64,000 bases of DNA from Lama guanicoe. Its lineage: Eukaryota. This document shows positions 4,811 through 35,467 of the stretch, in pieces. Within the stretch, counting starts at the first letter, position 1; each line of letters begins with the position of its first letter. The stretch spans positions 3,810,799 through 3,874,798 of the forward strand of contig MU053588.1 in NCBI GenBank assembly GCA_013239625.1, given 5' to 3'. The notes under the pieces were generated by a model. The model did no database searches. It saw nothing but the letters and a program-made list of their open reading frames with translations, and was not told the DNA's origin. A program made the translations under genes and the position numbers.

Positions 4811-5064
4811 TCAGGTCCAGAGGAGAACGCCTCCCCAAAGTCGGGCGGTCACAAGCAGGATGACAATGAGGTTGAGGTGAGCGGGGCCAGACCGGTGGGC
4901 GCCCCCAATGCGGGGCTGGATGTCCAGGGCTGGATTGTTACAGCCATTTCCAGTACAGCATGAGACGTTGACATGGGTGAGGCCGAAGGCTTCAGCCACC
5001 TGGAGGTCTTGGCACCAGGAGGGGGCTGCACAACCTCTTATGGTGTAGCTTGGGTTCCCCAGCC
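4811..5064 (-). CDS. PLAUR: PLAUR exon 7 coding part (D3 second half and GPI signal)
   Basis: [45 protein letters not shown]...GGVLLWT, TGA at 4813-4811. Confidence 0.97.
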
Positions 5065-14000: not shown

Positions 14001-16688
14001 ACCTTCACGATCCATCAACTCCTCCCTTCCAACTTGGTTAACTTAGCCGGGAGATGCCTCAAATAGGAATCTTTAAAGGAAAATGCTTCAAGCTTACCAA
14101 AAAGTATTAAAGAATGATATAATAAATATTGTGCATTCATCATCAAACTTTATAAAATATTATCATTTTGCTTATATTTATTTCAGATTTTTTTAAAACA
14201 AGATACCAAATTTAAAAGATACTTAAAGCCTCCTGCTTACTTCCCCAAATCCCATTCCCCTTATGCCCTGTCCAGAGGTGTAGGTAATTCTCATACCATG
14301 TATACTTAACAGTATATACTATTGTTTATTTGTATATTGTTTACTTTTTTTTGCTCTATACTATTTATATTAAAAGATATCAGATTCTGCAACATGCTTT
14401 TTTCTCTCTCAACTTTGTTTTTGGGAAGTATCTATGTTTAACCTGCAGCCCTAGTTCCTTCATTTAAGCTGCTGTGGGTATAAAATGTGTGATTATACCG
14501 TCATGTTTCTCCTCTGCTAACGCCTGACTTCAGGGTGTCTCCAGTTTTCCATATCACAAACATTATTGCTAAAAAACATTCTTATACATGTGTCTCTGGT
14601 CACGAGTGGCCAAGGTGCTTGAGGTCTCTATATTCCTAGCAGTCCAGCAGCTGGCTGTAGGGTATGCTAATCTTTATCTGTACCAGACATTGCCACATCG
14701 CTCTGTTTGGTGGATGCACCAGTTTACCCTCCTAATAGCAGGGTTGGCAGCACCACATCCTCATCGACCTCAGTATTGTCAGATTTTTAAGTGCTTGTCG
14801 ATCTGGTGTGCGTGAAACGGGTCTCCTTGTCCTTTTCATGAGCATTTCCCTGATTACTTGTGAGGTAAGATTTCTTGGTCACTCGGCATTCTCTGCCACG
14901 CTGGAGTCGGGGAGCTCACCTTCCCGTATGCGCAGGACTGTGGTCCTGCAGAGGTCCTGGCCGGGGGAACACTCTTCCACCCTGCAATTCCCGTTGCTTT
15001 TACACAGCATGCACTGCAGGCCCCAGGAGGCTGGGGCAGAGAGAGGAGAGGAGAGGACAGGTGTTATTGCTCCGCACCAGGATCCGCCTCTCGCCCCCTG
15101 GAGCCCCGATACCAGCACCAGGCCTCCAGGCCCTGTGCACTCAGGTTCACACTCCACTTCTGCCCGCCCTTCGGTTCCTAGGCTGGGTTCCCGCGGGCTG
15201 TAATTCCAGTCTATCTTTAGACCAACGTTCTATCTCCGCCTTCTACCCTACTGTTCCTTCGCGGCCCACAGGTCCTTCCTACTTCCTGCCCCTGCACGTT
15301 TTCCCCGTGATCCTGTCTGCGCGCAGGACCTATCCCGAAAGGCCGATCCCCACCATCTCTGCAGGTCTGGACGTTTTAGCCCTGCTCCCATTTAGGTCCT
15401 TTTCGCAACCCCACCTGCCCTCTCTCGGTCTATTCCGCCTCGTGAGCTCCCCTCGGGGTGTCCTATCCTCACCTACTCCAGTCGATCTTTACCTTCTACC
15501 CTCGTTCCCGGTGCCCCCCGCTAATGCCCACAGGTTCTACTCCCCTTGGTGGCCTCCCCTCAACGTTCTGTCGCCACCCAGTAGTTCGCGCCAAACTTCT
15601 AACTCCGCCCATGAGCCCTGCGGAGATTCTAACCCCAACTAAAGTGGCGTCCTCAGCAGTGTTCGCCCCGCCCACTAGCTGTTCCCGAGCTATTAGCCCT
15701 GCCCATTGGCTCCACGCCAATATTCTGACCCCGCCCACTATCTCCGCCCCAGTGCTATAGCCCCGCCCACTAGCCCTGTCCCAAGGCCTTTTCCTGCGCA
15801 CCAGAGCTCCTCCGTGGTCCCTTCCCCACTCCAAATTCAGAGTCCTCCCGAGTCATTACTCGTTCTTGGCCTCCCGCGGCCCGGAAAGTTTTCCGAGTTA
15901 TTCATTACCCAACCACCCAGCCCCTTCCCCCACCTCCCGCCCCGCCCTGACAGTTCCTTCTCTATTTCCTTTCGTTTTTCAAACCTTTTTACATTTTCCA
16001 GAGAAAGGGAGTGAGAGGGCCATGTCGGCTAGAGGACAATGTAAAGGAAGGCTCCTCGAAGGACAAGGCTTGGGTCCCCGGAGCCTGGCTCTGCCACGTT
16101 CAGCCTGACTCTCGTTAGCCCTTTTGTATAAGGAGCTCTGTCTTCCAAGTGTGTCTGCGTGTCCGTGTGTGTGTTGGTGAGGGGTGGTGGGTCGGAATCA
16201 GACATAGTGAGGAGCGATGTGGGAGCCTCTGCGGAGTCAGAATCCCACTTACTCAGTGACCTCGGGTCACTTAGTTCACCTCTCTGTGCCTCCGTTTCCT
16301 TCTCTGTGAGCTAAATTGTTCCGCCTGCCCAGTTCGAAATTGCAAGGAAGGCGCTTAGGAGAGTGCCTAGAATAAAGAGTGCACTCATTAAATCGTGGTT
16401 GTTAAGTGCCTTCACTCAACTATTACTTAAAGAATGTCTGCTATGTGCCAAGTGCTGTATCGTGTGGGGCTGCAGACAGCAGGAGAATTATTTGAGTTGG
16501 AGGAAAGGGGGCCTGGAGACTGCGCCCTTCTCCAACTCATCAGACTCTGAGCTCTCCTCCCCTCCCCTCCCCACTCCCTTCCGGGCCATCGGACCCCGTC
16601 CCCTGGGACTCGGGCCCCACCCCCTACCTGGAATGCTGGTCTGAAATGACAACAGCAGCAGCGGCAGCAGCAGCAGCGGGCGGCCCAT
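4811..16688 (-). CDS. PLAUR: Urokinase plasminogen activator surface receptor (uPAR/CD87); 7 coding exons: join(16628-16688,14920-15030,13641-13784,7865-8017,7159-7293,5955-6101,4811-5064), 1005 nt, 334 aa
   Basis: All introns are GT-AG and phase 1. The spliced ORF is open: [41 protein letters not shown]...three LU domains...[23 protein letters not shown]. It closely matches the known uPAR sequence, with a signal peptide and GPI signal. Confidence 0.98.
5955..6101 (-). CDS. PLAUR: PLAUR exon 6 (D3, first half)
   Basis: [49 protein letters not shown]; 147 nt. Confidence 0.97.
6350..6500 (-). mobile_element. MER3-like hAT-Charlie MITE
   Basis: CTGTCCAATATGATAGCCACCAGCC...TATTGGACAG...GTTCTGTTGGACAG internal inverted motifs. 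Confidence 0.65.
7159..7293 (-). CDS. PLAUR: PLAUR exon 5 (D2, second half)
   Basis: [45 protein letters not shown]; 135 nt. Confidence 0.96.
7865..8017 (-). CDS. PLAUR: PLAUR exon 4 (linker and D2 first half)
   Basis: [51 protein letters not shown]; 153 nt; translated by hand, not in the ORF track. Confidence 0.96.
8957..9122 (+). mobile_element. tRNA-Ala-derived SINE
   Basis: Full head and tail; TSD AATAGAGCT at 8946-8954 and 9123-9131. Confidence 0.9.
11160..11275 (+). mobile_element. tRNA-Ala-derived SINE
   Basis: Full head, CTAATTACCTCCCC spacer, poly-A; ATTGTTTAT on both flanks. Confidence 0.9.
13641..13784 (-). CDS. PLAUR: PLAUR exon 3 (D1, second half)
   Basis: [48 protein letters not shown]; 144 nt. 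Confidence 0.97.
14920..15030 (-). CDS. PLAUR: PLAUR exon 2 (D1, first half)
   Basis: [37 protein letters not shown]; 111 nt, AG/GT flanks. Confidence 0.97.
16628..16688 (-). CDS. PLAUR: PLAUR coding exon 1 (signal peptide)
   Basis: ATG at 16688-16686, [20 protein letters not shown], donor CAG|GTAGGG. Confidence 0.95.
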
Positions 16689-16920: not shown

Positions 16921-18904
16921 TGGTCACCTCTGTCATAGACTGCCTGGGTGCAAATTTTCAGTTCTGTCTTCCTGCTATGGGCAAGGGACCTCAGCCCTCG
17001 GATTAAAACTCTTCCCCACTAGAAATTTGTGACTGATTATTATATCATATAGGGCTTTCGTTAGTTTCGTCAGGAGGGATAATGGTATTGTGGTTGTGTG
17101 GGAAAATGTCTTTATCCTTTAGACGCTGAAATATTTGGGGATGAAATAATATAATGGCTCCAGTTTACCTTAAAACACTTTAGCCAAAAAATAGATATTG
17201 CTGTTATGATGGTTTTGTGGTTATGCAGGGAAATTTTTCGTATTTTTTACAGATGCTCATTGAAATATTTAGAGGTTGAATGTCATTGATGTCTGCCTTT
17301 CCCTTAAAACACTTTAGGAAAAAAGAAAGGCAAAATAGCAAAATATCTGTATCAATTTTATCAAAGTAACTTACCTGTCTCCTCTGTGTTTGTAAAGATT
17401 CAGAATAAGCTTTTTAACAAGGAAAATGAAGTGCAAACAATAGAATAGTCTATCCCTCTCAAGATGCTTCTAATCAGTCAGAGCAATTTAGTGCAGTTGA
17501 ATTAAATGCCTGAAACAGTCACTGGCCCATATGGAGGGCTCAACAGATTCTTTCAACATTTACTGAGGACCTGCCAGGCACAGGTCCAGGAGCTGGGAAC
17601 ACAGCAGGAAACAAAATCCCTGCCCTTGTGACTGTGACAGTAGGGAGTAAATACCCGTTGTGTAATCTATCACTGTCAGGCAGTGATAAGTAAAATGCAG
17701 AAAAACAAACCAGATTGAAGTTACTGCAAGGGTACAAGTGAGGCGAGGTTGGTTTTAAGCCAAGTGATCCAGGAGGGCTTTCCTGAAGAGGTGGCATTTG
17801 AGCAGAGACTGAATGTAGTGAGGGAAGAAGTCAGACAGATGGTCCAGGGAGAGTTCTAGGGAGAGGAAATAGCCAGTACCAAGGCCCTGACATGGAGTGG
17901 ACCTGATGAGATCTAGGGACAGCAGAGAGGCCAGTGTGACTGCAACAGAATCAGGAGGGACACAGTGGTAGGCAGTGAATAAGCAATAGCTCTGTCTACA
18001 CTATGGTAATGATTATACAACTGTGATTCTTACTAATTCATCAAAGCCTTAAGGTAATCATTTTAAGATAAAGTGAGAAAAATCCCAAAGAAATTCTCTC
18101 TTCTAAGAGGCAGTATAGCTTAGTGGTTAAGAGTGTGGGGGTTGGGACCAGACTGTGAGGGTTCAAATTTCAGCTACTCATTAGCTGTGTGGCCTTGGGC
18201 AGGTTACTTAACCTCTCTGTGCCTCAAGTCCATTATCTGGAAAGGAAAACTCAGTACCTCCCTCCCAGGGCTGTTGGGCTAGGGACATAAAAGAGGCGCC
18301 TGCCACATAGTACGTGCTCAATTTAAAAAATCATCGTCACTATTATTGTTGCGCCCGACGCTAGACTCTGGCCCTGCAGTTCCTCTCTGGGGGATGTGCA
18401 GGGAAGTGAGAAGTCATAGTCTGAGGATGGCAGTTGTCATGCTGACCCCCTAGCTGGATCACCCTATATCAACAGATACCCTCCTTCTCGAGCTTCAGTT
18501 TCCTCATGTGGAAAATGGGACCCCTCCCGGGACTGGCATGAAGACTGAAGGGGATGTTAATGCATATGAGGTGGGGGGAGAGAAAGATGGGGTGTTGGTC
18601 CAGGTGGATTGAGACTCAGCTCACCCACTTGCTCCTGGGGGGCCTTGGGCGGGTGGCTTCACTCCCTGGATCCTGCCTTTTTCCAGCTATGAAATGGGTC
18701 TAGGGTGGGTGGTGGTGTCTCTCAGTGGAAGGTAAGTTCAGGTCTGGAGACACACGGAGCTGTGTGGTCTGGCACTAACCACTTTCGGGCAGGATGACCT
18801 CACTGCTCTGGGCCACAATTTCCTTCCTTGTTGAGAGAATGATAGCTCTGTCTGGGAGCCCTCCCATCTCTACCCAGGCTGCTCTGGTCTCCCAAAATCC
18901 GTCC

Positions 18905-19550
18905 ATCTGTCTCCCTGTCTGTGTCTGTCTGTCTTTTTTCCCTCTCTGTTTTGATCTTTTTCTTTGTCTCTGTCTTGCCTTGTCTCTCTCCATCCCTGTC
19001 TCTCGTTCTGACTCTGTCCCACTCCCTCTCTGTCCCTCTATCTCTGTATCTTTGTTTCTTCTTTCCGTCTCTTTCTGTCTCTCTGTCCATGTCTCTCTCT
19101 GACTCGTTCTCTCTCTCACACACACACAAGTGACACACACTTGTGAGGCCCAGTGACGTGTTACAGGAGGGCGCAGGCAGGAGGCTGGGCCGTGCTTCAT
19201 CCCAGAAAAGCGGCAGGAACGTCCCTCCTCCTCGTGACTCACCTGGGCCTCACCTGGCTCCTACCTGTCTGCTGGGTCCCCAGGGAGGCCCCCAGGTTTC
19301 GGGGGCTTCCCGGGGCTGAGGAGAGGAGACTCTGGTGTAGAGACAAAGAGGGAGAGAGATCAAGAGAAACAGAGACACAGACAGAGGGAGACAGGAAAGG
19401 AGAGATAGTGAGAGAGTAAGAGGCCAAAGATGGACAGATAGGGGACATCAGAGAGGGACAGAGACAGAGACTGAGAAAACAGCAACTGAGAGCTGAGGAC
19501 AGAGACAGCAAGAAATAGGACAGAGACACACACACACACACACACATTGA
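18905..19550. repeat. CT-rich tract (18905-19130) and GA-rich tract (19320-19550) flanking a 190-bp unique core
   Basis: Directly visible low-complexity tracts of opposite strand polarity. Confidence 0.85.
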
Positions 19551-20051
19551 CAGATGGAGTTATCGAGAATGACCTCCACTTGCCTTCAAAGAAAGAAAAG
19601 CAAAGACAGAGACTGACGGATACCATGCGCATGCAGGCTCATCTAGGACCCCCTCAGCCTCTTGCCACCTGCCTGAGGAAGTGACCATCTCTGTCCTGGG
19701 CTGATTGTGGAGGCAGGTCTGTGGCCATTGCCTCCCTAACTCCAGGAGGCATGACAGGCAACACTCATGAGCTTTCCCATCCTGGCCTGACCACCTCCTA
19801 AATGGGGGGCATCTCAGCTTGGGGCCTCAGTTTTCCTCTGTAAAAGTGGGGGACAGAAGAGGAATCACCCTCGGGATTGGCAGAGCCAGGAAACCCCTGA
19901 GGTCCACACCCTTCTTCCTCCACTTTCCAGACAGAGAAACTGAGACCTGAAGGGGGACTTAATCTATTTATTATTTAGCCAATTTTTAAAATTGAAGTAT
20001 AGTTGATTTACAACCTTGTGTTAGTTTTTGGTGTACAGCAAAGTGATTCAG

Positions 20052-20090
<39 letters not shown>

Positions 20091-20172
20091 TATTCTTTTT
20101 CATTATAACTTATTACAAGATATTGAATAAAGTTCCTTGTCCTGTATTGTAGGAACTTGTTGCTTATCTGTT

Positions 20173-20240
20173 TCTTTTTTAAATGGAGATACTGGGGATT
20201 GAACCTGGGACCTCGTACATGCTAAGCATGAGCTCTACTG
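20173..20240 (-). mobile_element. tRNA-Ala-derived SINE (partial)
   Basis: Reverse-complement head TACTGGGGATTGAACC...GCTAAGCATGAGCTCTAC. Confidence 0.75.
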
Positions 20241-20934
20241 ACAAAAGGTAAGAAGACCATTGTTCCCCTACAGCCTCCGGAGGGAGGGCTCTGTCAACCC
20301 CTGGATTTTGGCCCTTTAAATCATTTCAGATTTCTGAACTCCGGTGCTATAAGAGAATACATTTTTTGTGGCTTTAAGACACTAAGCTGGTGGTAATTTA
20401 TCATAGCAACAATAGCAAACGAATACAGGAGGTTAAGCCACTTGCCTACAATGACTTGTAAGTATAGAGTCAGGATTTGGACCCAAGCAGTCTGGCTCTG
20501 CCGCCAGCGATCATAACCACCATGCTGAGTGTCGCTGCCCCAGGCAGACAAGAACCAGGAGCTAGAAGCCCCCATCTCTTTCCATCCCGTCCTCCACCAG
20601 GCCTCTTTGCCATGCTTCCCACTGGCTTCATGGGGTTGGGGTGACCTGGGAATAAGAGGGAATCTAGAGGGAAAAAAATGTGCTGAGTTTGTGCAGAAAA
20701 GAAAGATTCTCCTGCCTCCAGCACGTTGCAGTTCGAGTTCCACTGCTTAGCTGCCATAGCAGAAATAACCATTGCAATCCAGGGGCCAATGCTGCTCATG
20801 GGTAAAGAGCTCCTATTAGGGGTTAAACTGTGTGCCCACCCCCCCCCCTGCCAGGAAAGGAGGGAAGGAAGGAAGGGAGGAAGGAAAAAAGAAAGAAAGA
20901 AAGAAGGAAGGAAAGAAAGATGTTGAAATCATAA

Positions 20935-21335
20935 CTCCAAGTACTCAGAAAGTGACCTTATTTGGAAACAGGTTTGTTGCTGATGTAATTAGTCAAGATG
21001 AGGTCATAGCAGAGTGAGGTGGGCCCCTAATCCAATATGACCAGTGTCTTTATAAGAAGACAGACACTGAAGACAGAGACACAGGGAGAAGGCCATGTGA
21101 TGGTGAAAGCAGAGGTTGGAGTTATGAGCTGCCAGCCCAAGGCAGCCAGAAAATCACCAGAAGCTAGCAAGGGGCCAGAGAGGATCCCTGTGTTTCAGAG
21201 AGAGCTCAGTCCTGCCAACACCTTGACTTTGGACTTCCAGCCTCCAGATCGTGAGACAATATATTTCTGTTGTTTTAAGCTCCCCCCACCCCCGCCTTGG
21301 TGGTACTTTGCTGTGGCAGCCACTGAAAATGAATA
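20935..21335 (+). mobile_element. MaLR (MLT1-type) LTR
   Basis: GTGACCTTATTTGGAAA...GCCAACACCTTGACTTTGGACTTCCAGCCTCCAG...TTCTGTTGTTTTAAG. Confidence 0.7.
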
Positions 21336-21409
21336 CAGATTCAATGAACTAATAGAAAAATTAGGAAAAAGGGGAAGCACAATGGCTCTTATAGAAATGA
21401 AACTGGAAA

Positions 21410-21500
21410 GGGGGGAAGGTATAGCTCAGTGGTAGAGCGTCTGCTTAGTATGCATGAGGTCCTAGGTTCAATCCCCAATACTTCCATTTAAAAAAAAAAA
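21410..21500 (+). mobile_element. tRNA-Ala-derived SINE
   Basis: Head plus poly-A. Confidence 0.85.
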
Positions 21501-22970
21501 TTGACACTAAAATACCTTTTGCGTTAGCTGGCTTTTGCTGTTATACCACCCCAAAATTTAGTGGCTTGAAACAACAAAAATTATGCCTTATGCCTTAAGA
21601 TTGTGTGGGTTGGCTGGGCCCATCTCGGTCCAGGCTGGCTCGGCTAGGCCTGGTTAGTCTTGGATGGCTTCACTTGTAGGTCATCGGCTGGAGTGGCTGG
21701 GGTGCCCAGAACCCTTCCCATCCTCCGGGAGGTAAGCTTGTTCACATAGTGGCAAAATAGGTTCTCAGGAGCAAGAAAGTGATAACAAAAGCTGCAAATT
21801 CCCCTTAGGCTGAGGCTCAGAACTCACACAACATTATTTCTGCCACATTCTATTGGTCGAAGAGAGCTCCAAGGCTGACTCAAAGTTGAGGAGAAGGAAA
21901 GAGATTCAACTCTTGATGGAAAGGGATGCACAGAATTCATGGCCACTAGCATCTTACCACGCCCCTTTCACCTACAGACTGGCAAAACTAAAACAGTCAG
22001 ATGATGCACAGAGTTGGAGAAGCTGGGTGGAAATAGACACTCCCACACGCAGCTGGTGAGAGTGTAAATTGTTACAAACCCACGGATGGTCATTTTGCAA
22101 TTGCTCTCAAAATTACAAAAGTAGAAAATTCTTTTGATGTTGCAAAACCACTCACCTCTTCTGGAAACTTGGTACACATGTTCTTCACTGCAAAGGAAAT
22201 TGTAATACTGAGCCATAGGAAAATACCTGGCTGTACAAGAGGGACTTTTATCCAATGGGAAAAAGAAAGAGGAAATTGTGTAATTCAGATTACATGATGG
22301 TCAGGTCGAACAATCCAAGGGCAGAACAGTGTGTATGACATACCACTGTTTGTAGGTAAAAGGCAGCTGGGGAGGGGATGCCCAGCCCTTATTTGTTAGG
22401 AAGCGCATTAATTAAAGAACTCTTTTGATATCCCCTCACCTGCAGGTTCCAAATTAAGGGCAGGAAAATGTTGCTTCTCTGCCTCCCTGCCCTTCACACT
22501 CTTCACTCCAAAATCCTCATATTTGTGCAGCTTGTTGCCTGTTTACCCAGACCGAGTTATCAGCTAACCTTTGAGGAGACTGGCTTCTGGTCACAAAGCC
22601 TCCAAAGCACCAGGAGCCACTCCCTCCTCACCTACTCCAGCCTCCCTGGGGACTGTTCTCCCTTCTTCCCACTGCCTGAACCAAGGCGCTCGGGATTCAC
22701 CTGGGAAGGAGGTGGGCTTCCTCCCCAAATTTGCCCCTGCCTCAGCACCCCATCAAGAGGAGCTGCCTCCAGGTTCCTGTCTCTCCCTTAGGACCGGCAC
22801 CTTTCAAAGATTGCTCCTTGACTACACACCCTGATTGAGGGCCCTGCCCCAGCACTTGGGAAGCCTGACAAGCCTGCAGAGTGCCTTTGGACTGGTCTTT
22901 TCTCTTAGTTGAGACCTCTCCTCTGAGCCAAGGGGAGAGGCCAATTCCAGCCTTGCCAGGCCCACTGCTA

Positions 22971-23060
22971 GATGATGATGGTGGTGATGGTGGTGATGAT
23001 GGTGGTGACAGTGATGAAGGTGATGGTGATGGTGGCGATGGTGGTGATGGTGATGGTGAT
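22971..23060. repeat. (GAT/GGT)n trinucleotide microsatellite
   Basis: gatgatgatggtggtgatggtggtgatgat... Confidence 0.9.
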
Positions 23061-23733
23061 GTAGCGTTGACTGTTCTCAGCACTCTGCAGAATTCAGCTC
23101 ATTTTACCCCCACAGCAGCCCTTTGATGTAGGTCCTCCTAGCTGCTCTATTGGAAAAACAAGAAAGCTGACGCTCAGATGAGTGATTTCTCCAAGACCAC
23201 CCATCTTGAAGCAGCAGAAGTGGAACCTGAATCCAGGCTTTCTGGCTTCAAAGTGCTCACCCCTCTCTGGATGGGTGTGTGGTTTCCTTAAAGCTTGAAC
23301 ATCACTAGTAAAAATCCCCTCAGCAGTGACATAGCCAACACTTGTCGAGCGCTTATGGGAGGCCCTGGGGTTTGCCAGTTTAGTGGCTGAACACAATGAG
23401 GCCCCAAACAGGGGAAAGGATATCCCCTGAGTTACCCTTCAAAGGTAGGGACCCAAAGCTATTAATAATAATAACAACAACATGTCCATCACCCTTCTCC
23501 ACTAGGTAGCTTCGGTCTTGTCCCACATGCCCCTTGGGACTCAGTTTCCCCATCTCCCTGCTCCCTAAGACCCTTTCTCCCCTGCCTGGTATCTCAGTGG
23601 CCAGGGTCGCAGGTGGGGCCACTATTTCCTCAGCCTATTTGCTCTCCCACATCCAGGGCTGCCACCTCAGCCAAGGCCCTTGAATAAAAGGCCAGGGCAC
23701 CTGGTTCTGGCTTCCTCCTCTGCGGTCTAGATC

Positions 23734-23792
23734 ATGCTCTGGCTCCTCCCTCCCCTGGCGCTCCTGGGTGCTCTGGCAGCCCCAGAAGATAG
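23734..23792 (+). pseudogene. LU pseudogene exon 1 (signal peptide)
   Basis: ATG in atcATGc; MLWLLPPLALLGALAAPED; donor AG|GTACAT; TATA-like GAATAAAAG at 23682-23690. Confidence 0.7.
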
Positions 23793-24842
23793 GTACATTG
23801 TGTGTGATCCCTCAGAGATGGGGAGGGTTGGCTCAAAATCAAGCGGGTGGTGGGATTCTGGCTTCAGAGTCTGAGCCCCGGCTCCTTCTAAACTCGGCTG
23901 TTCGTCCAGCAGAGGCAAGTGACGGGAGTGTTTGAGAGCATAGTTCTGAAGCCCGGCTGCCTGGGTTGTAATCCTGGCTCTGCCCCCTTCTTAGCTCTGT
24001 GACCTTGAGCAAGCCACTTAACCTCTCTGGGCCTCAGTTTCCCCATCTGTGAAATGAGGATGATAATGGCCTGGCCTCTGGGGACCATGGGGGGCATTCA
24101 TTGAATCAATACATTTGAGGAGTTTTTTAAGAACTTAGAGTAATATCAGGCGGTACGTAGCCTTGTCTGAAGGTGAGCTCTTATTAATAACTTATTATTA
24201 TTCCTTTCCTTGGCCTGCCTGTCTCCCCTTTGGTGCTAATTCTACCACCTTTGGCCCAGGCTGGAAATCAAGGGATCCTAGCCAGGGTCTCACTGTGTGA
24301 TCTTGGGTGAGATGCCAAGTCCATCTGGCTTCAGTTTCCTTATCTATAAAAGGAAGGTATGAGATGAGGTCAGCAGTTTTCAGACTGCTCCTTAGAGACT
24401 TGAGGGTTCTTGGAAGAGCCTCAGGGGCCTCTGGGAGGTTAAGAGAAAGGCTTAGTGGACAGACGGGACTCTTCTCAGCCCAGATGATGAAGGGAAATAA
24501 CACTTTAATCTCTCCTGTTCTGCAGTTGTGAGGGAGATGTTGAGAGAAGGCGTTCCATGGCGAGCCCTAGTAGATTAGGGAGACTGTCAGCAGCTCCAGC
24601 TTGGAGAGGCTGACTCCATCTCCAGACCTTTGCCCACACTGTTCCACCCACCTGGAATGCCGTTCACACACCGCCGGGAAAGTCATCCTTAATGCTCTCC
24701 ACACAGCCCTCCCCTCCCACGCTCAGTCTTTAGATCTATTCTTGAATCATGTGTGAGTGTGTGTGTGTGTGTGTGTGTATGAGTGTATGTGTTTGTTCTC
24801 TTTCTCAAATTGCAAGGTCTGAGCACACCTCTCTCCCCGCAG

Positions 24843-24944
24843 GGACCTCCAAGATGTGTCCAGTCTGCCCTTGGCTGGGAAACTGCACTGAGAGAACCTG
24901 TCCTCCAGCCCAGGACTCCTGCCTGTTTAGCCAGATGCAGCTGG
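24843..24944 (+). pseudogene. LU pseudogene exon 2 (LU1a)
   Basis: ctctccccgcag|GG ACC...; GTSKMCPVCPWLGNCTERTCPPAQDSCLFSQMQL; donor G|GTGGGG. Confidence 0.8.
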
Positions 24945-25201
24945 GTGGGGGCAGAGAGGATGGACAAAGTGCGTGGGCAGGGGGTTGGAGGGGAGAGGCA
25001 TGGACGGGCCGCCCTGGGACTGGAGGTTCCCAGCTTTGCCTGGTAGCACAGCTCAGTACCGCAGGGAGTGGCAGCGGGGAGGGGTGGTGTCCACACCAGC
25101 TGAGGTCCCAGGTTGACCTCCGGGATTTGCTACAGAGTGGGCAGAGGTCTGGGGGCGGGGGTTGGAGCGATCTGTAACCTCTCCTTAAATTCTATCATCA
25201 G

Positions 25202-25351
25202 CAAATGGGACTCTCATCAAGCAACGGGCCCTGCGTGGCCCCTAGGGAATGCTGAGAAGGTGTCTATGCCCTGACCTACAGCCCCGACTTGGTCTCTGGG
25301 TCAGCACAGCCTGCTGTGAATCAAACAACGGCAGCAGGGCTACCCAACAAG
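25202..25351 (+). pseudogene. LU pseudogene exon 3 (LU1b), disrupted
   Basis: ANGTLIK/NGPCVAPREC*EGVYALTYSPD/GLWVSTACCESNNGSRATQQ; +1 frameshift near 25222, TGA at 25253-25255, -1 frameshift near 25289; donor G|GTTTGT. Confidence 0.75.
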
Positions 25352-26124
25352 GTTTGTCAGCGGGACCTGGGGGGTCACACACCCGGGTGGGGTGTCATGG
25401 GAACTTGGCCCTGGTTGCCAGCTCTGCCTGGCTGCTTGAGGCAAAGACAGCCTTCATTTTCTCATCTGGAAAATGGGTGTGAAATAACTTTCGCAGGGGG
25501 TGCCTCCAGCAGAAAGCTGTCGGCACTCGAGATACAGTAGCTGTGCTTATTGAGAGCTCGAGGAGGGGGCTGCGCAGAGGCCCCAGACTCTTATTTTCTC
25601 CTTAGGAGAGCAGCTGCCCTGAAGGTTAGCCAAGCAGAACAAGAAATGTCATGCGCGGTGACGGGCCCAGATCCCGGGTGAGGGGAGGTGCTTACTTTCA
25701 GGTGCTGACTCTGCACTTGCTCCACCTGGACAGCAAGCACCTCCTCACCACCAGCCTCGCTCTAGACCTGGCTCTGAGTGGTGATAAAGATCAGGTTTTT
25801 TGGCTGCTGGGTTCTTTTTCCAAAGAAGGCATTTGTATCTATTTGACAGGTGTAGCAGTGGGGAGAATGAGGCCGTTCCACACTTGGGGCTCCTAGCCTT
25901 CCTTCTAAACCCCTGGGATTTCCCTCCTCTTAAACTGTCCGCATCAACCAAATAAAATAGCCAGGTGCAGGTGGAGAGGCGGGCATGCTATTCTGTACAT
26001 AAAATGCCAGTTATGATCATAACTGCTTCAAACAAAACTCCTATGTGCAAGGAAAGGTTGAAGGGACCACCTAGGAATACTTTGATCACAGCTGTGCTCT
26101 CCGTAGAAACTTTTTTAAAGTATT

Positions 26125-26247
26125 TTTTGAGGGTAATTAGGTTTATTTATTAATTATTATTATTATTTTTAGTGGAGGTACTGGGGATTGAACCCAGGAC
26201 CCTGTGCATGCTAAGCACTGCACACTGCCACTGAGCTACACCCTCCC
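26125..26247 (-). mobile_element. tRNA-Ala-derived SINE nested in a MER33-like element
   Basis: Reverse-complement head and GGTAATTAGGTT spacer. Confidence 0.85.
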
Positions 26248-27169
26248 TGCTACCATAGGAACATAATGTGAGCCATACAGGGAATGAAAGCTTTTTGAGT
26301 AGCCACATTCAAAAGCACAAAGAAATGGATGACATTTATTTTAATAATAGAACTTATTTAAGGCGACAAATCTAAAATATTATTTCAACATGGAGATAAT
26401 CAATATGAAATTACTAATGAGATATTGTACTTTCTTTTTTCAAATGAAGCCTCTGAAATCTAGGGTGTGTTTTATACTCACAGCACATCCCAAAGGGAAC
26501 CAGCCACATTTTAGGTGCTCAGTAGCCACGTGGAGACACTAGTCACGTGTCAGCCAGCGCAGTTCTCTCATCTGCTTTTCTGTATCTGCCAGTGTTTCCA
26601 TACAAACCCCCATTAAAACGATTCATGGTTTAGTTCTGACTCAGGAAAAATATGCTTAGACAGCTTCCTCTTAAGTGTTTCAGGTTTCTAAGAAAACTCT
26701 GCAAATTAATCAGATGGTGGAGAACCTGCAAGCCACGGTCCTACTGTTTTGCAGAACACCACAACATCTTAAAACCTGAAACACCAGCCTCACGTTTTCG
26801 TCACTTTTGGAGGCCGGGGTCTTTGAGGGAGGGCTTTTGCCTGTGTGGTCAGTGTTGCGTCTCCAGGACAGAACCTGGCACACAGTAGGTCCTCGAGAAA
26901 TCTTTGTGGAATTAATTAAAGAACATTTAGGATTCAGCCTGAAGGTTTGTTTAGGACAGAGGAGCAATTTAGGACCAACCCCACCTTGAGGTGCTGTTCA
27001 CTGCTCCTTGGAAAAAGTCTTCAAGGGCTGGAAGCAGGTGGCTGAGACTAGGCTGGTCCCAGTTTGGAGGAAAGTGCCCCCGGGGGGTGTGGGTGGAGGC
27101 AGCAGGCCCAGACGGCTGGTGGGGGAAGGAGGGCTGAGAGGTGGGTGGACCCACACCCACTCCCACCAG

Positions 27170-27313
27170 AGGCAGGACCTGAAGCCCAGCCCAACGGGCT
27201 GAAGTGTCACTATTGTTCTGGGGATAAGTTGGCCCCATGTGACTCCCTTTCCATCATGAACGGCACTGGGAGCCAGACTCTGTGTCTCACCCTCCATGGG
27301 ACATGGCCTGGAG
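27170..27313 (+). pseudogene. LU pseudogene exon 4 (LU2a), donor lost
   Basis: EAGPEAQPNGLKCHYCSGDKLAPCDSLSIMNGTGSQTLCLTLHGTWPG; NGLKCxxC motif; expected Cys reads GGC at 27262-27264; no GT after 27313. Confidence 0.8.
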
Positions 27314-29034
27314 AAAAAAGTTCCTTTCCAGCAGTTATTTGCATGGCTTGCCTCACTGCCACCTACACAGATGTGTTGAGGTTTATTTGCATGTGGGTTC
27401 TGGTTATCTATTGCTATTTAACCAATCACTCTCACCCGTAGTGGCTTAAAACAACAACAGTCGCATTATTAACTCTTACGGTTTCTGTAGGTGGGAAATT
27501 CAGAACAAAACTGCAGGACAGTTTTGAGTCTCTCATGTGGCTGCAGTCAGAGAGCGGCTGGCTGGAGCTGCAGGGTTGAGAGCAGCCAGGGGCTTGCTAA
27601 GCATCTCATCCACGTAGGCTCTGGGCCTTTCCATGTGCTCTGTCCACACTGGTTAGACTGGGCTTCCTCACAGCGTAGCTGCCACCATCTTTACATGGCA
27701 GCAGAAGATTTCAAGAACAAGTATTTCAGCAAGCAAGGTGGCAGCTGCACGGCCTCTTATGACCTAGCCGTGGGAATCACATGATGTCACTTCTGCCACG
27801 CTTCACTGGTTGAAATGGTTGCAAAAGTCCATCTGGTTTCAAGGAGAGGCGATACAGACCTGCCCCTCTTGGTCTCAAAGAATTTGCAGATGTATTTTAA
27901 AATCATCACTGTGTGTTTGCAAATGGTTGGAACAGAGGCTTTTTGAGCAAAAGGCTTAGAATAGAGCTACACTGAGCAGAGGACAAACTATGAAACCAAC
28001 ACAGTGATAGAGAGAAGTGGCCTGGGCTTCTGCTCCTGGCAGTCTCAGGGACTAGCTCCCCCAAGAATTTTTCCTGCTATAAGCTGTAGCGTGCTGGGAA
28101 AGTGGGGTGAGAGGAGCCAGAATGGTGGGAGTGGTCCACTCTGGCGGGGAGAGGCATTTTACCACTGCCATTATTTAGAAATGCTGGTATATGGTGATGA
28201 TAAAAAACAGATTGACTTTCACTTGATTTTATTGTTCTTTTAAATTGCTCTGCAGACAATGCACCCTCTTATATCCTGCTTCTGGGATGGATTGCTCCCA
28301 CTCCCCATCTCCCTTGGTATTCTGATGTTTACAAATGAACTAGATTCCATAAAAAAAATGTTCCCATGATTTTGGGTGCTTACAGGAAATTAGGGAAATT
28401 TCTGAAGGTCTCCAAACAAAACAAAAATGTGAGCAGAAATCAGGAGAGCAGTGAGTAAACATGGATGGCACAGTGGCCCTGAGAACGAATGCTGTTAACA
28501 GCCTGCTTTGAGTGATGACATTTTGGGTCCACAGCATTGTTGTGGAGCTGACTCTTTGACTTCCACATAAGCCAAGGACCTTGGAAGGAGGTTGAAATGA
28601 TGCCAGCTTGGTAGTGCTCCCTGGTTTTCAATATAACCAAAGGCAAATCCCCATCTAGGGAAAAGTCTCCAGGACTCCCACAGATGGACATCAACCGAAT
28701 ATGAACTCATAATCCAGAGCTCAGGAAATGCGCAAGGAAACAAGCCACCATGAGTGATAGCAGAGGTAACAAACAACAGATACAGATCGACAAGGAGCTA
28801 TTGTAATTAGCTGCTACGGAACATAGATATATGTGACACATGTTAAAAAAAAAATAAAGCTAGGACTGCTCCCCCACAAATGAGCAGGCAACAAGAGGTT
28901 GTAGGAAACGACCAGAGAGATTTGAAAATGAATCATATGAAACTATGGGAATTTTCAGACAAAGAAAGGCAGACATCAATGTGAAAAGGCTCAAGCTCTG
29001 AGTTTCCCCCTGCAGCTTACCCCTGTTTCTGCAG

Positions 29035-29174
29035 TGGATCCCCAAATCCTGAAGAGCTGTGCTACACCAAAGATCTGCATCTGCAAGCAAACAGCATCCT
29101 GGGCCCGGAAGAGTCTGGATTTCATCTGACCGCCAAGCCTGAGTGCTACTATGCGGCTTCTCTCACTCAGCCAG
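29035..29174 (+). pseudogene. LU pseudogene exon 5 (LU2b), frameshifted
   Basis: tgtttctgcag|TG GAT...; VDPQILKSCATPKIC/LQANSILGPEESGFHLTAKPECYYAASLTQP; 140 nt (1-nt deletion near 29078); donor CAG|GTGTCT. Confidence 0.75.
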
Positions 29175-30674
29175 GTGTCTTGAAGCCTGACTTCCTGAGA
29201 CCCTACCCTCTCTATCCTTTCTGGATTCCACATGCCCTTCCCAATCCTATATGTTCCCAGGGTACTCCCTCCCGCTACCATAATGCTCCCAGGGAGTTCA
29301 ATTACCCATATGCACACACACACACACACAAATTCACACCACCTGACACCTGAAAGTAGAAAATTCCATTGGCGCATATCCACACATCCACAAACATCTA
29401 CATTTACATCCCAGCACCTGAAACACACCTACAGAGGAGCACACATTTCAAAACAGACACACACATCCTGTTGTGTAAGCGAGACTAAGAGATCTTGGTT
29501 TAAATAAGAAACCTGGTGGTCTTTTTCTTTTCTTCACTTCCTTGCTTGTGAAAGAAGACAGATTTGCCAACACAGTCTTCTCTGGGTTGAACAAAGAACA
29601 TCGACAATAATTTTTGTCTTCCAGAAAAGAGAGATGTTAATTGAGATAATATTTACCAGGGCAACAGCTATCTAAGTGAGACAACTGAACAGAATGACAG
29701 GTGTTTCAGAGGCACAAAGGCGATTTTTAGACCTGGACAGAACAGCATCTCGTTAGCTCTGGGGACATAGAAGTCGCTTTTGTTCGAACCTACACAGCAA
29801 GGACAGTTCTGTGATGCAGAAGAGGATATGTCTGCTGAATCTGCAGGCAAAGTGGGAACATGCTCACCAACACTTCCTCAGATTACCAGCTGCTAGGAGT
29901 TTTACTTTTCAAAACTAAGCCCAGGATTAAATGAATGATCACAGTGAAGAAAAAAAAAGAGGTAGACTCAATCTACAGATGCTAAAATTTGCACCATGGA
30001 AAGGGAAAAAGGGCAAAATAGGATTGCTAACAACTGGAACAAGGGACATGGAATTTTTGTGTATACAACCCCTGTGGACATGTAATATATCCATGCAGGG
30101 ACATATTGGTTGTCAGAGCCAAACACATGGACTGGGAAAGAGACAGGTACAAACACAGAAACATACAAAAGTACGAAATATACACAGACGTGCTGAAACA
30201 CTTAGTAACATCCACAAACATTCACATCTGAACACCAACGTCTACATCCAAGCACCCCAGACCTTGCTGGAAACACAGACACACCCAGACACAGAAATAT
30301 ACACAGACCCACAAAACCAGCCTTGTACACATACACAAAAACACGTGCTCTGTTCACACAGATATGCACGTAGGCACCTACACGTACAGCAACTCACGGA
30401 GGCAGACACACGAACATCCCCACCCTTCCTTAGACCATTTCAGAAAGTATAGACAGAGCGCAACGCGGGCATGCACAACCACGTGTGCACAGAGAAATGG
30501 GCCTGCGTGCTTGTACACACAAACTGCATAATCACAGAAGTGCACGCAGCAGCGTATTTGCGTAGTCACGGGCACATATCGATACGCTCAGAAATGCACA
30601 CACACACACACACACACACGTTGTCCTCCAGCCAGCTCATCTGCCTCTCTCCCCTGGTTCCCAGGCACCTGCAG

Positions 30675-30788
30675 CCCACTCCAAGGCTGAGGGCACCGTC
30701 TGTTTCACCTGCTCAGACGTCTACCATTGTGACCCTCTCCCCTGCAGAGAAGACAGGAACTACTGCCTTCAGACGGCGGGCGTCGCAG
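30675..30788 (+). pseudogene. LU pseudogene exon 6 (LU3a)
   Basis: AHSKAEGTVCFTCSDVYHCDPLPCREDRNYCLQTAGVA; strong donor CAG|GTGAGT. Acceptor is either 30674 (phase 1) or 30664 (phase 0). Confidence 0.8.
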
Positions 30789-31161
30789 GTGAGTGCCCTG
30801 CGGACAGGACAGGTAGGAAAAAGCCACAGAGGCTGGTGTCAGTGGAGGATGTGAGTTTAAAGTCTGATGCCACGTTTGTCATAGTCATTTATTGCTGAAT
30901 GACAAATCAGCTTAAGACGCAGTGCCTTAAACAGCCACCAAAGGACAAATACTGCATGATTCCACTTACATGAGATACTGAGAGTCGTCACAATCGTGGG
31001 AAAAGAAAATAGAATGGCAACAATAGTTTCAGTTTTGCAAAATGAAAAAGTTCTAGCGATCCATTACACATCATGTGAATATTGTTGTCACCACTGAACC
31101 ATACACTTAAAAATGGTTAAGAAGGTAAATTTGGTATTATGTATTTTTTCAACAATAGCTC

Positions 31162-31295
31162 CTTTTTTTTTTTTAAGTCAGGGAGGTAATTAGGTTTATT
31201 TATTTATTTATTTTTAGAGGAGGTACTAGGGATTGAACCCAGGACTTTGTACATTCTAAGCATGTACTCTGCCACTTAGGCTGTATCCTCCCCCC
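31162..31295 (-). mobile_element. tRNA-Ala-derived SINE
   Basis: Reverse-complement head, spacer, poly-T. Confidence 0.85.
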
Positions 31296-31615
31296 TTAAT
31301 TATGTTTTTTTAACCACAATATTAAAAAATAACTTCATGGCTCAAAACAACTATTTATTATTTCTCACAATTTGTTGAATTGACTGAGCTCAGCTGGGCT
31401 GTTTTTTTCTGCTCTAAGGAGTGAAGGCTGAGGTCCAAGGTGTTGGCTGCATTCAGCTGGGAACTCAGCTAAGGCTGAATGTTCGATAGAGCCTCTTACC
31501 TTCTGGGGCCTCTCTCCATGTCTGTAACCTAGTTGAGTTTCCTTACAAGATGGCAGTTAGCTTCTGAGGAGAAAGAAGTGGAACCATCTGCTTCTTAAGA
31601 GACAAGCCCGGGAGT

Positions 31616-31728
31616 GGGGAGGGTAATAGCCCAGTGATACAGTGCATGCTTAGCATGCATGAGGCGCTGGGTTCTATCCTCAGTGCCTCTATTTAAAAAA
31701 AAAACAAAGGAAATAAATTAAAAAAAAA
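31616..31728 (+). mobile_element. tRNA-Ala-derived SINE
   Basis: Diverged head plus A-rich tail; AGAGA(C/T)AAGCC on both flanks. Confidence 0.8.
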
Positions 31729-32371
31729 GAGATAAGCCGAGAACTGTCATACTGTCACTTCTGCACAGTCTACTGATCAGAACAAGTCACAAGGCCAGCT
31801 CAGGGGTGAGGAAATTGATTCCACCTCTTAACCTGGGAGTGGTAAAGTCATGTTGCAAAAACAGCATGCAAAAGTCTGCATCTACTGAAACATTCTGACC
31901 AGGGAGTCCCCAAGTCCCCTGTCAGTCTGTTCCATAAAGGGAAAAGCTGGATCTTCTGTAAATGGGATGAGGAGTTGAACTGAAACCAGCTCTTCTCTGG
32001 TATAAATTCCAAGAGGCACATGAATGGGAGACATAGGAATTCCAGACAAGGAGGAATAGTAAGGATCATGTACCAGACCCAGTGCTGGGCATTTCTGGGG
32101 TTCTAGAGAAGTTCCTGGCTAAGCCCATGCAGGACTCACAGACCGGTTAGGGAGAGATTACAGGTACAGAGCAGCCTTGTCAGGGAAAGGAAGACTTTCT
32201 GAACCATGTGTCTTGATGAACAATGTCAGCAAGTGCATTGGAGGGCACCTAATGCATCTCAGTGCTTCTCAGGCAGAATGAATGCCAACAATGGCATCCA
32301 GAGGGATTTAGGGAGCTCAGCTGGGGGGTGGCTCATGACTACTTCTCCCCTTGCCCTCCATATCTCTCCAG

Positions 32372-32537
32372 CCTTAGGCAAAGATAACTCTGTTGCTTGG
32401 ACAAATTATTCCTGCGTGGCCTCCAGTGACTGCACATTTGACAACTTCATCTCTACCTCGACGTACAGCATTGGCTTTGGCTTCTGGATCAACATTACCT
32501 GTTGTCAAGGCAACTGCCAAGAGCCCCCCTCCTCTCG
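32372..32537 (+). pseudogene. LU pseudogene exon 7 (LU3b)
   Basis: ALGKDNSVAWTNYSCVASSDCTFDNFISTSTYSIGFGFWINITCCQGNCQEPP; 166 nt, apparently one extra C in the C6 run at 32524-32529; donor G|GTATGT. Confidence 0.85.
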
Positions 32538-32795
32538 GTATGTTGCCACCAGAAAGCAGGCAGATGGGTGGCCAAGGAGGTGGTGGGGTGACTTTGGAGG
32601 AGAGTTTGTCCTGGGTTGAGGAGGGCAGGCACTCAACCCCCATTCCCCAACCAAGCTGCCCTAAGGCACCCTGACCCCGTCTCGGTGGGAGAGACCATTA
32701 AGATCATTAATTCCTCTGTAGTAGAGCCCATGAGTGCACGAAGGGCCCTGGGAGGTCCTGAGACTCCTCCCTTCTGACCACGCTCCCCTATACAG

Positions 32796-32942
32796 CCACT
32801 CTGCCAGCCTCAAGAACCCTGAGTATGTTCTTGTGTCCTACGTGTCCTGGGGGCCACTCAGGGCCCTGCAACCACTCCTTCTACATTCAGTGTCCCAGCG
32901 GGGAGACTGAGTGTGTCCAGATGAACCTGGTGTTGGAAGAAG
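32796..32942 (+). pseudogene. LU pseudogene exon 8 (LU4a)
   Basis: ATLPASRTLSMFLCPTCPGGHSGPCNHSFYIQCPSGETECVQMNLVLEE; 147 nt, intact; donor AAG|GTAAGG. Confidence 0.85.
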
Positions 32943-33587
32943 GTAAGGTGGGCGTGATTGAGCCTGAGTGTACTGGGTCTGGATCCAGGCATGCCTGGGT
33001 TTGGGAGTTCATCTCTATCATTCACTCTGTGTGGCCCAAGATAAGTAACTTCACCTCTCTGAGCCTCAGTCTTCTCTCCTGATAAATGGGAGTGGTGGAA
33101 GCACACCTCACAGGGTTTTGGGAGGAGGAAGTGAGCTTATGAGAGCAGTGATGTAGCAGAGGGCATAAAGCAAGATTCTGGGGCCAGACTGCTTGGGTGC
33201 AAATCCTAGATCTTATGAGCTGGATCACCTTAGGCTGGGGATTTCCTTTCTCTGTGCCTCAATCTCCCCATCTGAGAAAGGGGATAATTAGAGTCTCTTA
33301 TCCATAAGACTGTTGTGAAAATTAAATAAGATCATCCATTAATCTTCTAGATGAGTGCTGCCCAGAAGAAATACAATGTTCACGTGTGTAATTAAAAATT
33401 TTCAAGTAGCCGTATGAAAAAGTAACAGGTAAACTTTATTTAATAGTACACTTTATTTAACCAATATATCCAACAGTTATTTCAACATGCAAATGATATA
33501 AGAAATTATAAATGAGATATCTTATTCAGTTTTTCCTACTAAGTCTTTGAAATCTGGTGTGGATTTTACACTCACAGAATGTCCTAG

Positions 33588-33693
33588 TTTGTTTGTTTGT
33601 TTGTTTGTTTATTTATTTTGATGGAGGTACTGGGGATTAGAACCCAGGACCTCCTGCATGCTAAGCATACACTCTACCAATGAGCCATCCCCC
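33588..33693 (-). mobile_element. tRNA-Ala-derived SINE nested in a MER33-like element
   Basis: Reverse-complement head with a (GTTT)n tail; a second, internally deleted plus-strand copy lies at about 33840-33900. Confidence 0.8.
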
Positions 33694-35249
33694 ATCTCCA
33701 TGTCCCAGTTTAAACCAGCCACATGGCAAGCACTCAATAGCCACATGCAGCTAGTGGCTACTGTATTGAACAGCATAATTCTAGAACATAGTGAGGGCTA
33801 TGTATGGTGTTTCAGTGAATCTAAAATGATATCCTTGCAGGGGTAGGGTCTAGCTGAGTGGTAGAGCACATGGGTTCAATCCCCAGTACCTCCATTAAAA
33901 TGACATTGATGGGAAGACAGGAAGGCAGCTCTATTCAGAAATGTTAAAGTGTATGTGCGTTGGGAGGATGGGAATATGCGTCTTGGAACTGACAACATTC
34001 AATCTTAGTGGTGATGACTGTTACGTGTGTGTAAGGCTTACATGGACAGACCTTCAGTCAATCACTGTCCAGAGATGGATGTGTCGGGGAACTTGGGTTT
34101 GTGTGTACAGTGGGATGTGTGTATTGTGTGTGTGTGTGTTTCCTTAGAGGGGTGATGTGTCAGCAGGGAACCTGGGTGTGTTTGTGCAGATTGTTTGAGC
34201 CTCTGGGGGCATCGTGGGTGCTGTATGTGATTGAGACGTGCCTGTGTGCATGTGTGTGCACTTGTGTATATGTGTGTGTGGGTGGGTGTGGGACAGTGAC
34301 TCACAAACACGGCTCTTTGAGGAAGTGTACTCCAGTTCAGGGCAAGAGGAGATAAATATAGACCATGCCGTGACACTAACATTTCTTTCTCAATTTTGTA
34401 TTCTGGAGAAATTCAAAGATAAATAAAAGAATGAACCATTTAGTAAGTCCCACGTACCCTTCATCCAGCTCCAGTAATTATCATAGCCGATCCTGTTTCA
34501 TCTCCACCCTGGCCCCATCTGATTTTGAATACACACTCAGGTATCCTATGACTCAACCCTAAGTATTTCCACACATCCTTAAAAGATAACTGACCTAAAA
34601 ATAACCAATTGTGATGAAGTGTTTTACTGTTGGCAAAATAAGGCTATTTCACTTTCACATTCCCCATCAAATCCTCAGTAAACTAGTTACATTTGTATAT
34701 TTACCTTTATACATAAACAGATCACATCCTATCGTATTTACTATGTCATATACGGCCCTGAGAGGCACAGAAAATAGTTGGGAAACCAGCTGGAGGAATG
34801 TGTGGTGCAGCGTGGCCTCCAGGTGTCATAGTTTTCATTAATATTGAACACAAGTAAAAGAACATCTGGAACATAAGTGTAAGGTGTAAAGAGTAAGAAC
34901 TGAAGGCACGGCCGGGACCAGTCGCAGCTCAAAAATCAGAACATTCCTGGTGAGTTTTCCCGAAGGACATGGATTTGAGGGCCTTACATTCCCTCCGAGG
35001 TTGGCCCGGTCCCATGTGTGCCTTTCCATGTGACAAAGTCTTTTACGCAGGAGACCCCGTGGGGCTGGAAGGAGTTGCAGGAAAATCTGCTTGGTTTGGA
35101 AAAAACCCCGGCGTCTGGGGATGGCAACGCGGGGATGGCGACGCGGAGATGGTGCCAGTGGTGACGCACGTGTGCCAGGCGCTCCCGTGCAGGGGGGACA
35201 CCTGCCCGCGCGCATCCTCACGTCCCGGTCCCCACGCGCGTCTCCGCAG

Positions 35250-35467
35250 GCGGCGGGAACTTCAGCTTGGGCGGATGAGGCACGAGCGACCTGTGCGACA
35301 ACGAGGGGTTTCCCGAGCTCCCCGGCTGCCGGCTGGCGCACCCGCTGGTCTGCAGCTCCAGTCAACGCGCGGTCATGGACTCCGAGTGCTACTCGGGCGC
35401 GGCTCCCGGCGCCCCCATCGCCCTGCCTCTGCTGGTGGTCGCGCTGGGCATCGCGGCCCTCTCTTGA
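35250..35467 (+). pseudogene. LU pseudogene exon 9 (LU4b and GPI signal)
   Basis: tctccgcag|GC...; GGGNFSLGG*GTSDLCDNEGFPELPGCRLAHPLVCSSSQRAVMDSECYSGAAPGAPIALPLLVVALGIAALS*; TGA at the expected Cys position 35276-35278; possible AGTAAA polyA signal at 35582. Confidence 0.8.

Follow-up and report, generated by a model that had tools for sequence, protein, structure and literature searches.

Multi-LU proteins form a small group in the LU-family literature, comprising uPAR, LYPD3, LYPD5, TEX101, PINLYP and CD177, and the available extracts of three sources mention no gene of the kind described here (PMC4839075, PMC6600238, PMC6337849). In the same extracts, the human 19q13 cluster is said to hold every known multi-LU protein, six in all. 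The N-terminal LU domains of uPAR, C4.4A, Haldisin, TEX101, CD177 and PINLYP are reported, in excerpts of two of these sources, to be without the 7–8 disulfide (PMC6600238, PMC6337849). Here we analyse a mammalian window of 64,000 nucleotides, that is, the whole stretch of DNA examined, from the guanaco Lama guanicoe (assembly GCA_013239625.1, contig MU053588.1, positions 3,810,799 to 3,874,798 of the forward strand). On its plus strand, between PLAUR and IRGC, nine exons spanning 23734–35467 make up a damaged LU-domain gene, hereafter the LU remnant, which is very probably a unitary pseudogene, the sole genomic copy of an old placental-mammal gene at this position. The intact gene would encode a protein of about 415–420 aa with a cleavable signal peptide, four LU domains and a C-terminal glycosylphosphatidylinositol (GPI)-attachment signal. 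We consider it likely that the PLAUR cluster holds an overlooked seventh multi-LU gene, for an old placental GPI-anchored four-LU receptor composed of two pairs resembling domains 2 and 3 of uPAR (D2D3), which would be the only multi-LU protein to keep the 7–8 disulfide in its first domain and whose gene would have been lost repeatedly.

Compared with uPAR, the four-LU family shares the arrangement of consecutive LU domains, each distributed over two exons, the signal peptide, and a hydrophobic C-terminal tail that follows an SGAAP motif in human uPAR as well. It differs in having four domains, built as a duplicated pair, rather than three; in retaining all ten cysteines of its first domain (LU1), whereas uPAR D1 is reported, in the excerpts cited above, without the 7–8 disulfide; and in sequence, the family profile giving no sequence-level match (PDB, 0 matches). 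Each half of the family protein resembles a two-LU protein of ~200–225 aa such as PINLYP or the snake PLA2 inhibitor gamma (PLI-gamma), and the automatic names of several family members point in this direction. PINLYP, however, has half the number of domains, lies at a different locus and is predicted, in the portion of the source available, to be without a GPI tail (PMC4839075), whereas the family has a GPI-type tail. A comparable history is that of CD59 in the guinea pig, described in the available text as an LU gene that has died in a single lineage but survives intact elsewhere (PMC6600238), with the difference that here the parent gene itself is without name or literature. CD177 likewise has four LU domains and belongs to the same chromosome cluster, according to extracts of two sources (PMC6337849, PMC6600238). 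It is distinguished by another LU1 cysteine pattern and by its position, the family locus lying between PLAUR and IRGC. CD177 adjoins TEX101 and LYPD3, not PLAUR.

Exons and lesions of the guanaco copy

Exon boundaries were set by alignment to orthologues, and intact orthologues matched the window in tblastn with per-exon E-values of 1e-9 to 4e-22 and, for exon 8, down to 2e-27, far beyond chance (Table 1). A first-pass annotation, made from the letters of the window alone, had described nine plus-strand exons including a signal-peptide exon and a GPI-type tail; all are present, and orthologues match them one by one. The same annotation had called the splice sites mostly phase 1 and each LU domain split over two phase-1 exons, as in PLAUR. 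That layout holds, since the eight exons that follow the signal exon pair two per domain, but the word 'mostly' does not: when the frameshifts are taken into account, every one of the eight ancestral introns proves to be in phase 1, with AG at seven of eight acceptors and GT at six of eight donors. The phase-2 junction it had placed at the exon 7–8 boundary is spurious and results from the one-base insertion in the C run of exon 7 (32524–32529), the orthologous acceptor lying at 32794–32795.

The proposal that the gene is dead in this genome was borne out by three one-base frameshifts, two TGA codons in the ancestral frame, two Cys-to-Gly changes, one dead donor and one dead acceptor. Single bases are gained or lost in exon 3 (an extra, then a missing base), exon 5 and exon 7. 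Spliced literally, the window copy ends at codon 67. Read through with X at the breaks, it yields 417 codons with 49–71% identity to 33 orthologues and retains 34 of 37 conserved Cys codons, and its decay is therefore moderate; exons 6–8 keep all their cysteines. Given the in-frame GT six bases further on, the AA at the ancestral donor of exon 4 may not be disabling. Selenocysteine was considered for the TGA that occupies a conserved cysteine position in exon 9 and was rejected: Rfam detected no selenocysteine insertion sequence (SECIS) element in 16000–45000, and the question is moot given the other lesions.

When the 2.05-Gb guanaco genome was searched with an orthologue, seven exon matches were obtained, all at this locus, and no working second copy was found within the sensitivity of that search. 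Lesions in the sole copy and intact orthologues elsewhere, which together characterize a unitary pseudogene, were thus both observed.

Table 1. Exons and lesions of the LU remnant, with flanking genes, in window coordinates.
Feature	Position	Strand	Remarks
Exon 1	23734–23788	+	Start codon and signal peptide; peptide identical to N-terminus of Camelus ferus P0002
Exon 1 donor	23789–23790	+	AT instead of GT
Exon 2	24843–24944	+	LU1 first half, 5 Cys; intact, AG acceptor, GT donor; E 2e-16 to Bubalus P0005
Exon 3	25202–25351	+	LU1 second half; several lesions
Exon 3 extra base	25222	+	Literal frame then meets TAG at 25243–25245
Exon 3 TGA, ancestral frame	25253–25255	+	Arg in orthologues
Exon 3 missing base	between 25291 and 25292	+	One base
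Exon 3 Cys-to-Gly	25330–25332	+	
Exon 4	27170–27313	+	LU2 first half; orthologue E 3e-16 to 9e-21
Exon 4 Cys-to-Gly	27262–27264	+	
Exon 4 ancestral donor	27314–27315	+	AA; in-frame GT six bases further on, 27320–27321
Exon 5	29035–29174	+	LU2 second half
Exon 5 missing base	between 29078 and 29079	+	One base, frameshift; Camelus sequences in frame here
Exon 6 acceptor	30655–30656	+	TG instead of AG
Exon 6	30657–30788	+	LU3 first half, 5 Cys; GT donor; orthologue E 3e-15 to 3e-18
Exon 7	32372–32537	+	LU3 second half, 5 Cys
Exon 7 extra C	32524–32529	+	In six-C run; frameshift
Exon 8	32796–32942	+	LU4 first half, 5 Cys; intact, AG acceptor, GT donor; orthologue E 4e-20 to 2e-27
Exon 9	35250–35467	+	LU4 second half, GPI-type tail; stop codon 35465–35467
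Exon 9 TGA	35276–35278	+	At conserved Cys position
PLAUR coding region	4814–16688	-	Start codon 16688; last coding exon and GPI signal within frame 4814–5251
PLAUR further coding exons	inside open frames 14882–15229, 7782–8060, 6989–7315, 5944–6159	-	
IRGC	45427–46821	+	Single-exon open reading frame; Pfam IIGP E 7.9e-96

The orthologue family and its predicted fold

The 55-aa translation of exon 7 matched all three proteins scored, namely a hypothetical protein of Camelus ferus, an unnamed assembled protein and an 'uncharacterized' protein of Kogia. With the Kogia protein as query, 58 of 1494 candidates matched at E ≤ 1e-5. A profile built from 16 orthologues recovered 61 proteins at E ≤ 10 out of 8000 scored. 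All of them form one family of placental mammals, and no other LU paralogue appeared within the threshold of the profile search. The family, a discrete set of proteins of 414–435 aa, spans ruminants, carnivores, bats, primates, tree shrew, hystricognath rodents, Afrotheria and Xenarthra. In line with the earlier suggestion that the gene is unnamed, its members appear in the sources as 'uncharacterized protein LOC...' or under similarity names (PINLYP-like, PLI-gamma-like, RoBo-1 and once 'CD177 antigen isoform X2'), and the gene is not among the named multi-LU proteins in the available extracts of the LU-family literature. A search for publications by the family's LOC and XP identifiers returned, in article text without supplements, only a cattle genome-wide association study (GWAS) naming LOC512005.

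Whether the gene might be intact in other mammals, as had been supposed, is answered by a 33-row alignment in which 22 models of 405–435 aa carry both a signal peptide and a GPI-type tail; these derive from ruminants, carnivores, bats, colobines, loris, tree shrew, hystricognath rodents and tenrec, and the sea cow and xenarthran models are shorter. A single unnamed assembled contig of 1941 bases (P0006) encodes a complete member of 418 aa, and because a gene of ~12 kb fits such a contig only if spliced, at least one species would carry the nine exons together in a single spliced RNA. Exons 1–5 and 6–9, which the first-pass annotation had taken as one gene, are joined both in this contig and in full-length models. 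A gene tree of 30 rows, from which the remaining family members were left out, follows the mammalian orders; within it, the window read-through pairs with a camel-like sequence (support 100) inside a ruminant–cetacean–camelid clade (support 100).

In human and gorilla, the models of the family (P0059, P0068) span no more than 183 aa, beginning at the end of exon 6 and running to the tail. Both have Tyr for a conserved Cys in the end motif of LU3 and, close by, Cys for Trp, which suggests that the gene has also decayed in apes, whereas colobine monkeys retain forms of 417–421 aa. Among the matches of the Kogia-protein and profile searches there was no mouse or rat member, which is weak evidence of absence.

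Across 33 sequences, 37 columns have a cysteine majority, distributed over the four domains in a 10-8-10-9 pattern, and for the last column the count is 24 of 29 filled rows. In LU1 none of the ten cysteines is lost, each being Cys in 24 of 24–25 up to 29 of 29 filled rows. LU1 and LU3 end in CC...C, the last pair being absent from LU2 and LU4. The last cysteine of an LU domain is usually followed by Asn; in the family consensus this residue is Ser or Gln. In five of five orthologues the N-terminal half aligns with the C-terminal half (26–31% identity over 173–196 columns, E 1e-11 to 4e-22), and the protein is therefore a two-LU unit duplicated in tandem (A-B-A'-B').

Structure prediction agrees with this organization. 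The first AlphaFold model, based on 16 sequences, had a mean predicted local distance difference test (pLDDT) of 56.4; for orthologue P0067, with 33 sequences, the mean rose to 65.7, with block means of 53–87 in four beta-rich cores and values below 50 in linkers and termini. The top Foldseek matches of the first model were all multi-LU proteins, including uPAR (E 1.5e-7), CD177 (third-ranked, 397 columns, E 3.7e-7), C4.4A and TEX101. Residues 19–192 and 203–388 of the second model each superposed on uPAR D2-D3 with Z 9.3–11.7 and a root-mean-square deviation (rmsd) of 3.2–5.3 Å over 109–164 residues (VIA-align), and LU1 superposed on single three-finger proteins (three-finger toxins, GPIHBP1, Lynx1) with Z 7–8. 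In the ESM Atlas, as leads only, each half was nearest to two-LU PLA2-inhibitor-like clusters, with template modelling (TM) scores of 0.71–0.74, normalised by hit, for residues 1–187 and 204–395. In the model, each two-LU unit packs like uPAR domains 2–3. A PDB match of exon 7 alone, to botrocetin (E 0.85), was dismissed as chance.

The intact protein would be a GPI-anchored cell-surface binding protein, and, judging from uPAR, CD177 and the PLI-gamma/PINLYP group, its ligand may be a secreted protease or phospholipase.

Camelid decay and competing explanations

Camel-like sequences are ~90% identical to the window in the LU exons. The Camelus-like contig P0105 (1423 bases) carries exon 3 in the same shifted frame and with the same Cys-to-Gly change as the window, so that some of the damage, at the least, is older than the divergence of the two camelid lineages. 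Other damage is private, namely the exon 5 frameshift of the window and an Arg that replaces Cys in exon 5 of Camelus. Between window and Camelus, ~21 of 229 residues differ in the LU exons (hand count within exon limits) compared with 7 of 361 in IRGC, a difference that fits relaxed constraint on the LU exons in camelids. The contigs P0001 (969 bases) and P0105 join exons 5-6-7-8 and 3-6-7-8, respectively, and camel-like contigs terminate either by reading on into an intron or in a foreign exon near 34.4 kb, suggesting that the camelid locus is still transcribed and aberrantly spliced. The camelid gene would accordingly have been inactivated before guanaco and Camelus separated and have drifted since, while transcription and aberrant splicing continued. 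In RNA runs of guanaco only 0.07–0.18 of the sampled words were present, which gives no evidence on expression or tissue.

Camelus models and contigs also contain extra exons in intron 4 (window 27491–27784, plus strand, peptide MAAEDFKNKYFSKQ) and intron 8 (window ~34380–34426, plus strand, peptide EKFKDK). Both peptides are also encoded in the window, and the exons look like cryptic exons of a decaying locus.

Several points weigh against the reading of the LU remnant as a unitary pseudogene of an old four-LU receptor gene. The frameshift calls rest on a single draft assembly of 55231 contigs, and synteny is based on cattle (a published gene list) and Camelus (a fused model) only. The domain profiles proposed for checking in the first-pass annotation gave a divided result: UPAR_LY6 was matched by four of 16 orthologues (best E 1.5e-12) and by one of six in another scan, which is weak support, and in the window by one of 14 exon frames, exon 8, below the cut-off (E 3.6e-4, 21.4 bits against 24.8); PLA2_inh was absent from every Pfam scan of window frames and orthologues. 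The 16-orthologue profile had no match in the PDB by sequence at E ≤ 1, and the LU three-finger fold of the family is a prediction drawn from an orthologue model of medium confidence and the cysteine pattern. Signal peptide and GPI-type tail were read from sequence, in 22 of 33 alignment rows and in window exons 1 and 9. Finally, orthologue models are N-terminally short in cetaceans (273–286 aa), sciurids (289), macaques (277–292) and pig (324), which may mean that gene erosion reaches further lineages, or simply that these models are incomplete.

Several of the cetacean, sciurid and pig models (P0003, P0004, P0012, P0046) start at an internal LU2 Met or with a repeat-derived N-terminus, and in the tree the unnamed 418-aa transcript P0006 is placed next to the sciurid model; annotation gaps, rather than gene erosion, may thus account for some of the short models.

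Errors of assembly or sequencing might have produced the breaks in a gene that is in fact intact in living guanacos. The draft state of the genome is in keeping with this, and so is the placement of two of the three frameshifts, single-base changes within or next to short runs. We consider such errors very improbable as the explanation, as at least ten independent lesions are present and six of them are substitutions rather than errors of the homopolymer type (two TGA codons, two Cys-to-Gly changes, the AT donor and the TG acceptor); moreover, the exon 3 shift and its Cys-to-Gly change recur in independent Camelus-like sequences, and the Camelus bactrianus model is itself flagged as low quality. 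The similarity names 'CD177 antigen isoform X2', 'PINLYP-like' and 'protein RoBo-1' borne by some members, the four LU domains that CD177 also has in the available account (PMC6337849), and the two-LU PLA2-inhibitor-like clusters found as leads in the ESM Atlas might instead point to a copy or fragment of a named LU gene, be it CD177, PINLYP or RoBo-1. Against this stands the profile search, which closed on the four-LU family and gave no CD177 sequence save one naked-mole-rat family member so named; together with the locus, it fits the earlier impression that the exons do not resemble CD177, and CD177 superposes poorly overall on the model (Z 7.0, rmsd 19.4 Å). The ten cysteines of family LU1 set it apart from the N-terminal domains of named multi-LU proteins, described in the excerpts as without the 7–8 disulfide (PMC6600238, PMC6337849), and cattle PINLYP, in the gene list as available, lies at a different locus from LOC512005 (PMC12837429). 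An origin from a named gene is accordingly extremely improbable.

A product that survives in shortened form, as a protein of LU3 and half of LU4 or as a regulatory RNA, would make the camelid locus something other than a pure relic. The open frames of P0001 and P0105, of 230 and 188 aa, and the full complement of cysteines in window exons 6–8 speak for it. These contig frames are nevertheless without an in-frame signal-peptide exon and run on into an intron or stop in a foreign exon. Exon 5, the exon 6 acceptor and exon 7 carry further breaks peculiar to the window, and divergence between the two camelid sequences is ~5 times faster in the LU exons than in IRGC; we therefore hold a shortened product to be improbable and retain inactivation of the sole copy as the explanation of the LU remnant.

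Neighbourhood of the locus and significance

PLAUR lies on the minus strand, in the head-to-head orientation that had been proposed, its start codon being separated from that of the LU remnant by 7046 bases; its last exon matches human uPAR with E 1.4e-28 and its D2 exon with E 2e-16. IRGC starts ~10 kb downstream of the end of the LU remnant on the same strand. A promoter common to PLAUR and the LU remnant was considered and dropped, as the start codons are 7 kb apart and the CpG observed/expected ratio is ≤0.29 across 17000–24500. The position predicted for orthologues, beside IRGC, recurs in cattle, where the portion available of a GWAS gene list places LOC512005 in one locus on Bos taurus chromosome 18 (BTA18) with IRGC, SMG9, KCNN4 and LYPD5, PLAUR at the end of the adjacent locus, to which PINLYP also belongs, and PINLYP between XRCC1 and IRGQ (PMC12837429). 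A Camelus bactrianus RefSeq model flagged LOW QUALITY fuses the LU exons to IRGC and thereby confirms the neighbourhood in Camelus.

Other features of the window were recorded alongside. A second, broken copy of the IRG family at 50233–51858 (plus strand), ~3.4 kb downstream of IRGC, matches Pfam IIGP with E 8.2e-17 over profile positions 183–302 only and contains stops and frame changes in tblastn with the IRGC part of the Camelus model as query; it is probably an IRGC-like tandem pseudogene. Rfam detected tRNA-like elements in the spacer between PLAUR and the LU remnant (21415–21486, plus strand, 44.2 bits) and in introns of the remnant (26173–26245 and 33622–33693, both minus strand, 32.0 and 31.8 bits), all three of which look like heads of tRNA-derived short interspersed nuclear elements (SINEs) rather than tRNA genes. 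Just upstream of the start codon of the remnant, a tandem repeat at 22745–23098 (unit 6–24 bases, TGATGG-like) translates in several frames to long His/Ser/Pro or Asp/Gly runs.

For the guanaco genome, the analysis annotates 12 kb beside PLAUR as a pseudogene that appears to be transcribed. The result is ordinary for this locus and moderately interesting for the LU family, in which what is new is a further four-LU gene, conserved across four placental superorders and without a name, on which we found no publication. Under the reading considered likely here, the lack of a name would be explained by truncation of the gene in human and gorilla, by the absence of a match in mouse and rat, and by its inactivation in camelids. 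For work on uPAR, it would offer a natural comparison protein of two D2D3-like pairs, an exception to the loss of the 7–8 disulfide in first LU domains and a case of repeated gene loss. If this reading is true, a gene lost several times yet long conserved in other lineages would suggest a ligand system that is dispensable and tuned to the lineage, with an immune or reproductive role.

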